Positions 18,001-21,000 of a stretch of DNA of 42,184 nucleotides are shown here, one piece after another (the first letter of the stretch is position 1; each line of letters starts with the position of its first letter). The DNA is from a virus (Duplodnaviria; Heunggongvirae; Uroviricota; Caudoviricetes), in IMG/VR virus record IMGVR_UViG_2579779052_000008, positions 1 through 42,184 of that record; one strand, given 5' to 3'. A program made the position numbers.

Positions 18001-21000
18001 GCCAGTGCGGTGTGCCTTACGCAGCGTGTAAATCAGTTTGATAATGGCGTCTGCGGTCACCGTCGTCGCTTCACCGGATACAATATGCTGAAGTTTACCG
18101 AACGCACGAACCTTATCGGTTTCATCGGTGGATTCATACGCCAGGAACCCTTTTGGCTTCTTGGTGCCATCACCGGTGGTAAAGGCAATTTCTTCCTGTT
18201 CAGCAAATTCGGTCGCCAGCTCGCTGTTGATCCAGGCCTCCACGTTGAAGAAGGCATCATCCAGCATTTTCTGAGTGGCCTGCGGGTTACCGTAGATTTC
18301 CCCCATGAAAGGTTCAATCAGTCCCAGTTTTGAGGTGGCAGTCTGGGAGCGCGCGTCAGTCTCGCCCACCCATCCGGAAGCCGTGCCGCCCAGATTCACC
18401 AGTTTTTTGTAGTCGGAACCGCCAACAGTGATCACCGTGGCTTCCTGACGCATCACCACTTCATCTTTCAGCAAGGTCAGAATGTTGCGATCCAGCGCTT
18501 CCGGCACGGCATAGCCGCCGTCTTCATCGGTGCCCACCTGTAATGCCTTGCGCTCCAGATCGCGCAGACCATCTTCACGGCCTTTACGCAGGAAGCCCAC
18601 AAACGCTTCTTTATGCTCGGTGGTCAGTTTATTTTGCGCACCACCTGCCGGACGTTTCAGCTCAAGCAGCTCTTTTTCAAGATCGCTTTTGAGGTTTTCC
18701 AGCTCGCTGAGTTTCCCGTTCAGGGTTTCCACCTGCCCGGCAAGTTTGCCTTTTTCCTGCTCAATCGCATCCACGCGCTTGTCGTTCTTTGCCTTGAAGT
18801 CGTCAAACTTCTGCTGCAGCTCCTGCGCGACCTGTTCCACATCTTTAATATCAACCGCCATCGTATTTCTCCTGATTAGAAGTTCAGATTTTTCAGTGCA
18901 TTCAGTGCAGAGCCCACATCCTCAGCGTCGCGCAGGGACAGTGCGCCATAGCCCCCGGCCATGAATGCTTTGGCCTGGGTACGGGAGAGTCCGACATCAC
19001 GCAGGACTCTTTCGATTTTTTTCTGTTCAGGGATTTCCCCGCGGGCCAGCGCGTTCTTGACGTCGCTGATCCGCGCCTCGTCGTTAGACGGAAACGTCAC
19101 CAGACTGACTTCCCAGAGGTCGATTTCTTTCAGCAAAAAGGCTTCTTTCGTCCGGTCGTATTCCCAGTCTTTCAGGACGTACCCAATAGAAAGGCCGGTT
19201 AACGAACCGGCCTTCATGTGTGCATGTGCGCGTTTTGCCAGGGGATCATCATCAATGAGCAATCGCCCCCTGACGTAAAGCCCGACATCGTCTTCCTTCA
19301 TTTCGGTGTAAACACCGATGGGCTCATCCATGCGGTGCTGCCAGAGCAGCGCAGGTAACGCTTTTCTGTCACTCCACGCCCGCAGGGAAGCAGCAAATGC
19401 CCCGGACATCACCACATCATCGTGGCTGTCCTTTACACCAAAGACGGAGCCATACCCTTCAAACTCACCGGAGTCACTGACAGATTTCAGACTCAGCGGT
19501 ACATCAAGACGTTGTTTCGTCTGCATTGGCGTTATCCTTCTGCTTACCGGCTTTACTGCCATCGGAGGGTTTCGTGGTCATGTTCATCGGTGTGAGATAG
19601 ACATCCCCACCGGGACGCGGATTCATATCTTCCAGGTCGCGGCAGTCATTGGGAGAGTAAATTCCCCAGTTGATACCGGTGGCGTAGGCTTCAAAACGGG
19701 ACTTCATATCCCCGCGCAGTAACGCCCCGGCGTTAAATTTGGCGTAATAAACGCCCTGCTTACTTTTTCGTACCAGTCCGGTGTTGATCCGCTGCTCAAT
19801 GCGGGTCAGATACGGCACCAGTGAATAGTTGATAAATCCCAGCCCCAGCTCTTCGATATTGTTGAAGGTGGCGCGATCGGTGTTCTGCACCATGTGCAAT
19901 GGCACCCGGAACAGACGACAGATTTCTTCAAGCTGAAACTTGCGGGTTTCCAGGAACTGGCTGTCCTCGGCGTTCAGCGCCATCGACTTCCAGTCCAGCC
20001 CCATCTCAAGGATCATCGGGCGGTGAGCATTGCCAAGCCCGGTGTGACGCTCCTCAAAATCTTTCTTCAGGCGCTCATAAGCCTGATCTGACAGCGTCTG
20101 CTCTGTACGCAACACACCCGACGTCACCGCGCCATTGCTGAACAGTCTGGCCCCGTGCTCTTCGGTCGCTGCCGCCAGCGATATTGCCTCGCGGGCATAG
20201 GCGATGGGATTCAGCCCCACCAGTCCGTCCATCGTCAGCGTGCGCACATGCCAGATATCCTCCTGGCTCAGTACATCCGTGGAGCCATCCGGGAATGTGA
20301 CCTGATAGACCGGCTCCCAGCTACTGTTAAGCTTCGGTACCACACAGCCGGGATCGACGGGCAGCAGTTCAGCCACTTCGCCAAATGCTTTCACTTTGTA
20401 GGCGTAAAAGTTTCCCCGCAGGCACAGACAGGTGACCACCAGCTCCCAGAACTCCTGCGGCGTCATATAGCCATTGGGATGCGTGGAGATCAGCTTATGC
20501 AGACGTTCACCAGTGGCTCTCTGCTTCAGGCTGCCGTTCAGGTGATACAGGTTGCAGGGCAACATCCCGACCGACTCCGCCAGCACCCTGACACAGGAAA
20601 AAACCGCCGTCAGTCGCATGGCCCGCTGGCTGCTGATCTGCTTTCCGGTATAGGTGTCGTAGGACAACCCGATAGCATCCGCCAGCTCTGCTGGCGTGGT
20701 CACCGGTGCGTCACTTTTTCGTTGAAATAATCCCGAAAAGAACACTATTTACCTCCGCCGACAGACGACTGTGTACGGTCGAGATATCGCGCCACCAGCC
20801 ACGACCAGAACAGGCACAACGCCCCGGCAACAACAAACCCCGCCGGGGGATAAATCAGCCAGGCACCATACGCCAGCAAAAGCGCCCCCAGCACGCCCAC
20901 CAGAGGCGCGAGAATCAGCATGATCATAATTACCTCAGTTAAAGCGAGCGGATCCCATAGGACTCAATGTGGTCAGACAGCGTGTCTTCTTTCTCGTACA

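Follow-up and report, generated by a model that had tools for sequence, protein, structure and literature searches.

In phage lambda, a small gene (68 aa) is located between the genes for the large terminase subunit (A) and the portal protein (B). The product of this gene, gpW, is a soluble α/β protein that binds to the portal of the filled head. The small protein gp15 of phage HK97 is reportedly responsible for superinfection exclusion, and its gene is reported to be located in the tail gene region and to be expressed independently in the prophage state. In phage T4, the portal initiator (gp20) assembles on the inner membrane together with the phage protein gp40 and the host protein YidC (PMC9958956). 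The gene described here, ymfR, is located between the genes for the terminase large subunit (TerL) and the portal protein of a tailed phage (Caudoviricetes; IMG/VR record IMGVR_UViG_2579779052_000008). The stretch of DNA that was analyzed, referred to as the window, covers positions 1 to 42,184 of this record, and ymfR occupies positions 20745 to 20927 on the minus strand. ymfR is a genuine protein-coding gene, and its family occupies a nearly invariant position immediately ahead of the portal gene.

The product of ymfR in the window is identical at 60 of 60 residues to YmfR of Escherichia coli K-12 (b1150, prophage e14), where the gene is flanked by remnants of the terminase (aaaE/ymfN) and portal (beeE) genes. 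The two sequences are the same, whereas the surroundings differ: the window copy resides in a seemingly intact head module, and the e14 neighbors are pseudogenes. In the e14 prophage of strain MG1655 (locus L279, 2550 to 2732), ymfR is intact, aaaE is an annotated pseudogene, and beeE is a short portal remnant. The RefSeq label of b1150 is "IPR020297 domain-containing protein YmfR", and the name given by the Prokaryotic Genome Annotation Pipeline (PGAP) in E. coli genomes is "ymfR: protein YmfR". The product matches phrog_502, "membrane protein", over residues 1–55 with an E-value of 2.5e-28, and this family is placed by PHROGs in the category "moron, auxiliary metabolic gene and host takeover". 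No model in Pfam, NCBIfam, or PADLOC matches the product, and only subthreshold hydrophobic noise appears in the first two. With a K-12 name, a PHROG, and an InterPro entry, ymfR is already a named and catalogued gene and is ordinary as an object. No functional study was found in the literature on ymfR, phiKO2 gene 3, DUF1056, or transmembrane open reading frames (ORFs) between terminase and portal. The rigid tie of the YmfR family to the portal gene is apparently undescribed in the databases and literature that were searched.

In 858 of 5,426 complete E. coli genomes, at least 80% of the 4.3-kb TerS-to-portal query is covered at one place, and ymfR is annotated in every one of the matches listed. 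The gene is also found in SfI, SfII, SfIV, ST64B (sb3), phiP27, and phi467. The host element of the window is an SfV/e14-like myovirus prophage, and a 98.7%-identical prophage copy is located at dusA in E. coli G5.

Results

Junctions and Coding Status of ymfR

The features of the junction are as follows.

20745 to 20927, minus strand: ymfR, 60 codons (ATG at 20927–20925, TAG at 20747–20745); the product is a predicted two-helix inner-membrane hairpin
20928 to 20938, minus strand: 11-nt spacer from the TerL stop to the ymfR start, containing the Shine–Dalgarno sequence GAGG (20936–20933)
20939 to 22672, minus strand: TerL gene, 577 aa, directly upstream of ymfR (PF03354 and PF20441; phrog_9)
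19504 to 20745, minus strand: portal gene, 413 aa (PF04860, E-value of 4.4e-108; phrog_12)
20743 to 20747, minus strand: stop/start overlap TAGTG, with the ymfR TAG at 20747–20745, the portal GTG at 20745–20743, and a shared G

The TerL stop codon TAA (20941–20939) is followed by the 11-nt spacer CTGAGGTAATT, and the ATG of ymfR begins at the 12th base past the stop. The GAGG of the ymfR ribosome-binding site lies 5 nt ahead of the ATG. The Shine–Dalgarno sequence of the portal gene, GGAGG (20756–20752), is located inside codons 58–59 (Gly-Gly) of ymfR. It follows from this layout that ribosomes ending ymfR are placed to restart on the portal gene. The GTG start of the portal gene is backed twice, as the homologues align from residue 1 and the relatives carry ATG or GTG at the same position. 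An earlier note, made from the sequence of the window alone, had described an ORF at exactly these coordinates (strand unstated) with a good ribosome-binding site, a start 12 nt past the terminase stop, a stop overlapping the portal GTG in an arrangement for translational coupling, and a product made almost entirely of two hydrophobic helices. This description of the locus was confirmed throughout.

The same geometry is found in the relatives. ymfR is present in all of the divergent Enterobacterales loci that were examined, and these share the arrangement TAA, 10 to 12 nt with GAGG, and ATG at the TerL side. At the portal side, TAATG or TGATG appears where the window has TAGTG, and GGAGG, GGGGG, or GGAGA is found 5–6 nt upstream of the portal start in all of the divergent loci.

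An ORF of 60 codons is not significant by itself, and therefore the reality of ymfR has to be judged by conservation. Within the same 7 kb of sequence, 81 ORFs reach a length of 30 aa or more, and the ymfR stretch itself is overlapped by three spurious ORFs. Selection was measured over codons 1–49 with six homologues (55–65% identical) from Mangrovibacter, Scandinavium, Erwinia, and Citrobacter. The proportion of synonymous differences (pS) between ymfR of the window and these homologues is 0.49–0.69, that of nonsynonymous differences (pN) is 0.17–0.20, and the ratio of nonsynonymous to synonymous substitution rates (dN/dS) is 0.11–0.29. All pairwise dN/dS values fall within 0.07–0.29 in the ymfR frame only; in the five other frames, pS is mostly not above pN. 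These ratios, together with the identical junction geometry across divergent loci, lift the ORF above chance. ymfR is a genuine protein-coding gene, and its peptide is under purifying selection.

Two copies are carried by Shigella flexneri SFBU0723. One of them (L012, 3001 to 3179) is frameshifted after codon 27 to give an aberrant product of 71 aa, and the other (L006) is intact.

Family Breadth and Synteny

A profile search of 1.84 billion representatives returned 385 clusters at 50% identity (E-value of 1e-3 or below), nearly all of 45–110 aa. When a distant subprofile was used in a word-indexed search, at least 1,524 clusters at 90% identity were obtained. The few named matches to the distant profile are from Bradyrhizobium, Pseudomonas, and uncultured Caudovirales, and a further locus resides in a metagenome-assembled genome (MAG) of Alcaligenaceae. 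At least 540 contigs in IMG/VR contain close relatives and at least 214 contain distant ones. Members in cultured phages include phiKO2 gp3, PY54, Marinobacter phage AS1 gp3, and Azospirillum phage Cd gp30. YmfR thus belongs to a large phage protein family, the named relatives of which come from Gamma-, Beta-, and Alphaproteobacteria. One locus, L016 from a Defluviitaleaceae MAG, was discarded as a false positive, being an ABC transporter that contains the word YGAWLIY.

In nonredundant distant loci, the small gene is directly followed by a PF04860 portal gene in 50 of 51 cases and directly preceded by TerL in all 32 of 32. The stop codon of the family member shares bases with a start codon that is in frame with the portal gene at 50 of 54 loci (TGATG or TAATG in 40, ATGA in 10). 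The spacing on the TerL side varies in these 54 loci from −23 to +149 nt. This synteny holds although the TerL groups are only 17–20% identical and the portals 13–45% identical. The positional hallmark of the family, which was derived empirically in this analysis, is a place between TerL and an HK97-type portal with a stop codon overlapping the portal start, and the window has this arrangement. A check of conservation and synteny in related phages, as proposed in the earlier note, therefore shows ymfR kept at the same junction in close and distant relatives alike.

In several records, the gene is misnamed or missing from the annotation. Homologues are called "head-tail joining protein W" in the phage records ON470603, ON470584, ON470580, and PQ793804; these labels are positional misannotations, unfit for a hydrophobic hairpin. 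Family members are unannotated in the records of SfIV and PY54, where a tblastn match is found and no gene is called, and the same applies to the ORFs of SfV and of Burkholderia phage vB_SR1.

Predicted Structure and Topology

The ymfR product contains two hydrophobic stretches and has a grand average of hydropathy (GRAVY) of 1.22. The model obtained with AlphaFold2 from a 96-sequence alignment is a hairpin with a helix at residues 2–23, a turn at 24–28, and a helix at 29–57. The mean predicted local distance difference test score (pLDDT) is 85, and that of the first helix is about 90. The segments of the protein map to the window as listed below.

20859 to 20924, minus strand: helix 1 (TM1), codons 2–23, with conserved G11, G14, G21, and W23, invariant or nearly so (AlphaFold2 and hydropathy)
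20838 to 20858, minus strand: turn LIYPPAG, codons 24–30, the most conserved motif of the family, on the predicted periplasmic face (alignments; residues 24–28 are nonhelical in AlphaFold2)
20790 to 20837, minus strand: helix 2 (TM2), codons 31–46, with G35, C38, L39, W41, and S42 conserved within Enterobacterales
20748 to 20789, minus strand: basic, variable C-terminal tail, codons 47–60, predicted to be cytoplasmic, in which the last Gly-Gly encodes the portal GGAGG

The median numbers of Lys and Arg residues over the 96 sequences are 2 in the N-terminal tail, 0 in the loop, and 2 in the C-terminal tail. Because of this distribution, both termini of YmfR are predicted to be cytoplasmic, with the turn at the periplasmic side of the inner membrane. 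Residues 50–57 of the C-terminal tail are variable, unlike the Gly-Gly at its end, which is invariant.

The family signature is G-x2-G-x6-G-A-W-[LM]-[IV]-Y-P-P-A-G-[FY]-I-x-[AG]-G, and the motif [ST]YGAW[LM][IV]YPPAG[FY]I is retained at 35–50% overall identity. Family members are proteins of about 55–70 aa with two hydrophobic helices and a [YF]-P-P-A-G turn, as is the product in the window. Some members are tandem four-helix proteins with two hairpin units (P0152 with 122 aa, P0164, P0173, and P0217). The tandem versions suggest that the hairpins associate with each other.

Other Occupants of the Junction

Records with a related portal (2,061 in total) were ranked by portal similarity, and 12 cultured phages were sampled at even steps along this list. 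A small two-helix ORF is present at the junction in three of them, namely, Vibrio phage K343, Ralstonia phage Dina (gp25), and Burkholderia phage vB_SR1, with scores of 19, 26, and 37 bits, respectively, against the hidden Markov model (HMM) of the family. The ORF of vB_SR1 (L269, 615 to 800) is unannotated, encodes 61 aa, and has a score of 37.5 bits.

The TerL proteins of SfI and SfV are 98% identical, and the block from orf3 onward is replaced between them (PMC3636060). In SfV (NC_003444; L178, 2289 to 2450), an unannotated two-helix ORF of 53 aa that belongs to phrog_7105 shares an ATGA with the TerL stop and extends into the annotated portal gene, where it ends. This ORF has a score of 26.5 bits against the YmfR family HMM and precedes a portal different from that of SfI. 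The true start of the SfV portal gene is probably about 50 nt downstream of the annotated one (GTG at 2392). The SfV ORF and Dina gp25, both in phrog_7105, are weak relatives of YmfR; they score 26 bits with the family HMM and cross-match phrog_502 at an E-value of 6e-6. The orf3 product of phage D3 (54 aa, phrog_4810) has the same architecture as YmfR without a sequence relation (−1.8 bits) and without the YPPAG turn. All three (D3 orf3, the SfV ORF, and Dina gp25) are two-helix hairpins of 53–54 aa, and their ORFs overlap the stop codon of TerL on one side and adjoin or overlap the portal start on the other.

A similar protein is found in a phage of a Gram-positive host. Like YmfR, the orf59c product of Streptococcus phage Sfi21 (DUF1056, PF06341) contains two hydrophobic helices in 59 aa and is encoded at the TerL/portal junction of an HK97-type module (TerS-TerL-x-portal-protease-capsid); unlike ymfR, its gene is separated from the portal gene by an 18-nt gap instead of overlapping it. 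No Pfam match between DUF1056 and YmfR was obtained even at an E-value of 1 or below, and the hhalign probability is 0.2%. As a positive control, orf59c itself gave 39.5 bits with the DUF1056 Pfam model. Proteins with DUF1056 are variously labeled "scaffold protein", "phage tail protein", or "head-tail joining protein", names that derive from position. Lactococcal phage r1t was dropped as a further DUF1056 example because its module is annotated with the portal before the terminase. The look-alikes are either homologues that have diverged past recognition or products of a slot that was filled repeatedly by similar mini-proteins. Both origins argue for an importance of the position next to the portal gene.

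The earlier note regarded a small membrane protein as unusual in an HK97-type packaging module, a view that is contradicted by these results: the family comprises hundreds to thousands of clusters with the portal gene downstream and TerL upstream as counted above, and two-helix look-alikes occur in D3, SfV, and Sfi21.

Additional Observations in the Window

An ORF of 66 aa is found at positions 17406 to 17606 (minus strand) between the genes for the major capsid protein and the head-tail connector, and its counterpart in the G5 prophage is annotated as a hypothetical protein with a frameshift. In its longest form (ATG at 19562), the ORF of the prohead protease shares 59 nt with the end of the portal gene (19504 to 19562, minus strand). 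A shorter protease gene of 651 nt is called by PGAP in the related prophage, and the start of the protease is thus uncertain.

Discussion

Proposed Function

The reading favored here, which is held tentatively and by analogy, is that YmfR may be a late, non-virion accessory factor of the inner membrane with a function tied to the portal. YmfR may tether or chaperone the newly made portal subunits at the membrane, and the portal ring and procapsid would then begin to assemble at the inner membrane. A comparable case is the membrane-associated chaperone gp40 of T4, which works with host YidC. The linkage of the family to the portal gene, the exchange of the small ORF along with the portal block between SfI and SfV, the recurrence of two-helix ORFs in this slot, and the SOS co-induction of ymfR in e14 are counted in favor of this reading. 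Such a factor would improve head assembly and yet be dispensable, which would fit its absence from HK97 and some relatives.

A number of observations weigh against a portal-linked function. HK97 has no ymfR, and in this phage the stop codon of TerL itself overlaps the portal start. No junction ORF is present in the remaining nine of the 12 phages sampled (Mcat27, Xp10, Psp6, CF121c, PPompW, Tavor_SA, phi12, Panchino, and Javan181). Conservation in YmfR is highest in the membrane helices and in the periplasmic turn, whereas a contact with the portal is expected on the cytoplasmic tails, which are variable. Stop/start overlaps are common in phage late operons, and coupling alone is no proof of a functional link. 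The pairwise identities of the small protein in 27 loci correlate poorly with those of the portal and TerL (Spearman coefficients of 0.13 and 0.16, respectively) and not at all (zero) without the near-identical pairs. Finally, deletion of ymfR in K-12 gives no phenotype (PMC9145139).

Some of these points have a context of their own. The deletion in K-12 is uninformative because e14 is defective. The comparison of identities in the 27 loci is likewise uninformative; even the portal and TerL show no correlation with each other, owing to the mosaic modules and to poor alignment of the stop-to-stop translations. The absence of ymfR is seen only in distantly related head modules. From its absence in HK97 and in nine of the 12 phages, it follows that YmfR is no general requirement of HK97-type head assembly; ymfR is a frequent accessory of the head module and not a core component.

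A broader proposal, put forward with more reserve, is that the two-helix hairpins encoded upstream of the portal gene (YmfR/phrog_502, phrog_7105, D3 orf3/phrog_4810, and DUF1056) might constitute a widespread and unrecognized class of head-assembly accessory proteins that localize or chaperone the portal at the membrane for procapsid initiation or DNA packaging. This is possible, if doubtful. If it were true, membrane-nucleated head assembly, which so far is mainly documented for T4, would be common in HK97-type phages of Gram-negative and Gram-positive bacteria. If the portal link is functional, ymfR would provide a simple genetic handle on the cellular site where HK97-type heads begin assembly. 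The practical gains are more certain, and these include better annotation of the junction, a corrected portal start in SfV, and removal of the family from lists of "moron" or cargo candidates.

Alternative Explanations

The alternative that survives best, although it is considered rather unlikely, is that YmfR is a late envelope effector unrelated to head assembly. Such a protein might block the entry of superinfecting DNA, or it might tune the membrane potential or the time of holin triggering, and the TerL-portal junction would be used only since this site guarantees late expression and tolerates insertions. The concentration of conservation in the helices and the periplasm-facing YPPAG turn, rather than in the cytoplasmic tails, counts in favor of such an effector. 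Its patchy presence among phages with related portals (three of 12, and absent from HK97) is typical for accessory genes, the PHROGs category points the same way, and the tandem four-helix versions suggest a self-association such as that of small pore-formers or regulators. An arbitrary position, however, would scatter the members, and yet 50 of 51 precede a portal gene and 50 of 54 overlap its start. Unrelated two-helix families are found in the same slot in phages of Gram-negative and Gram-positive hosts, no PADLOC model is matched, and the related G5 prophage has a full lysis cassette elsewhere. This cassette is separate, with genes for a lambda-family holin, a GH24 endolysin, and a spanin/lysis protein about 5 kb upstream of the packaging genes. 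The portal-linked function is preferred over the envelope effector because of the near-invariant position and its recurrence in other sequence families.

The suggestion in the earlier note that ymfR is a moron riding in the late operon is improbable, a moron being understood here as a horizontally acquired gene for lysogenic conversion, a toxin, or exclusion with its own expression from the prophage. The small hydrophobic product, the PHROG category label, and the intact ORF in the decayed e14 between terminase and portal pseudogenes would all suit a moron. Against these stand the expression signals, the composition, and the distribution of the gene. Three promoter-like sites were found in 4.8 kb where 2.8 are expected, and none of them precedes ymfR. 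The 11-nt spacer upstream and the 1-nt overlap downstream leave no room for a promoter or terminator of its own. Terminator-like sites number nine in the same 4.8 kb, with 4.6 expected. The GC content of ymfR is 0.56–0.57, compared with 0.51–0.62 in the flanking TerL and portal genes. The gene occupies the same position in close and very distant relatives, despite the divergence of TerL and portal, and it is conserved rather than sporadic among the close ones. The usual marks of a moron (its own promoter and terminator, a deviant base composition, and sporadic presence among close relatives) are thus not found.

Data from K-12 also argue against a moron: the deletion strain has no phenotype (PMC9145139), and the only expression data found show that ymfR of e14 is induced by the SOS response along with the rest of the e14 genes, with a log2 fold change of 4.5 (PMC10012262). 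Having no signals of its own, ymfR is transcribed as part of the late operon. The interpretation in the earlier note was therefore partly supported and was wrong on its main point, as ymfR is not unusual for the module and the moron reading is not supported, although YmfR may still have a toxin or exclusion role.

Two terminator-like hairpins with T-rich runs lie inside ymfR on the minus strand (20837 to 20851 and 20882 to 20909), one of which is formed from the PPAGF codons (CCCCCGGCGGGGTTT). These were dropped as candidate regulatory elements since they are not conserved among the relatives.

Slightly less probable still is that ymfR is a cis-acting device only. In this case, translation through ymfR would feed ribosomes to the portal start and set the dosage of portal to TerL, the peptide would be irrelevant, and an RNA hairpin in the gene would be part of the control. 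The candidate hairpin is described as follows.

20892 to 20910, minus strand: tentative RNA hairpin CGCGCC-N7-GGCGUG, ORF positions +18 to +36 (covariation and RNAalifold)

This hairpin has a 6-bp stem and a 7-nt loop and occurs only in the enterobacterial clade. For five of the pairs, the bases are largely dictated by the amino acids, with [TA]-P codons paired to G-V codons. The sole unconstrained pair, formed by the third bases of codons 7 and 11, is CG in seven, GC in five, UA in five, AU in one, GU in one, and mismatched in one of 20 distinct sequences. The covariation score was reached by none of 500 shuffles (0/500), and the stem is predicted independently by RNAalifold. The stability is unremarkable, with a z-score of −0.11 for the local minimum free energy, and no Rfam family matches. 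The hairpin in ymfR remains tentative, as it depends on a single covarying pair to which differences between lineages in GC content at third codon positions could contribute.

Covariation at these two synonymous positions of the stem, the conserved stop-start overlap with the portal ribosome-binding site in the last codons, and an invariant terminal Gly-Gly preceded by freely variable residues are all features that a cis-acting device would display. Such a device would not account for the purifying selection on the amino acids (dN/dS of 0.07–0.29), nor for the motif and two-helix architecture that are kept in distant relatives despite nucleotide saturation. In HK97, Psp6, Xp10, and CF121c, the TerL gene adjoins or overlaps the portal gene without an ORF in between, and the hairpin is restricted to enterobacteria and is not unusually stable. 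The earlier note had named, as an outcome that would defeat its own interpretation, a gene needed only for translational coupling of the portal; since the peptide is under selection, this outcome fails as well.

A role for YmfR as a class II holin, pinholin, or antiholin, "holin-like" having been one of the options in the earlier note, is very improbable: the small size, the two transmembrane helices, the predicted N-in/C-in topology with a basic C-terminus, and the apparent M1-I2-M3 double start of the window copy would be compatible with it, whereas the neighbors are TerL and the portal with no adjacent endolysin, the near-identical G5 prophage carries its holin, endolysin, and spanin genes separately, Met3 is found only in this subclade (the homologues begin with MFLIIL, MILMIL, or MILTIL) with no charged residue between the Met residues, no holin family is among the Pfam, NCBIfam, and PHROG matches, and the S21 pinholin, used as an approximate query, has a score of −2 bits against the family HMM.

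Comparison with Known Systems

The portal-linked function proposed for YmfR can be set beside three described proteins. Lambda gpW resembles YmfR in the size and position of its gene and in little else. The score of gpW against the family HMM is −1.1 bits, a value that is indicative only, and YmfR is a hydrophobic hairpin. A soluble α/β fold of the gpW type does not fit the GRAVY of 1.22 and the two helices of membrane length. The exclusion moron of the HK97 gp15 type is, like YmfR, a small inner-membrane protein encoded by a prophage. Unlike gp15, YmfR has no expression signals of its own, and its gene is coupled to the portal gene at a constant position that is deeply conserved. T4 gp40, acting with YidC, is a phage-encoded, non-virion factor of the inner membrane that takes part in portal assembly, and for YmfR it offers a functional analogy only.

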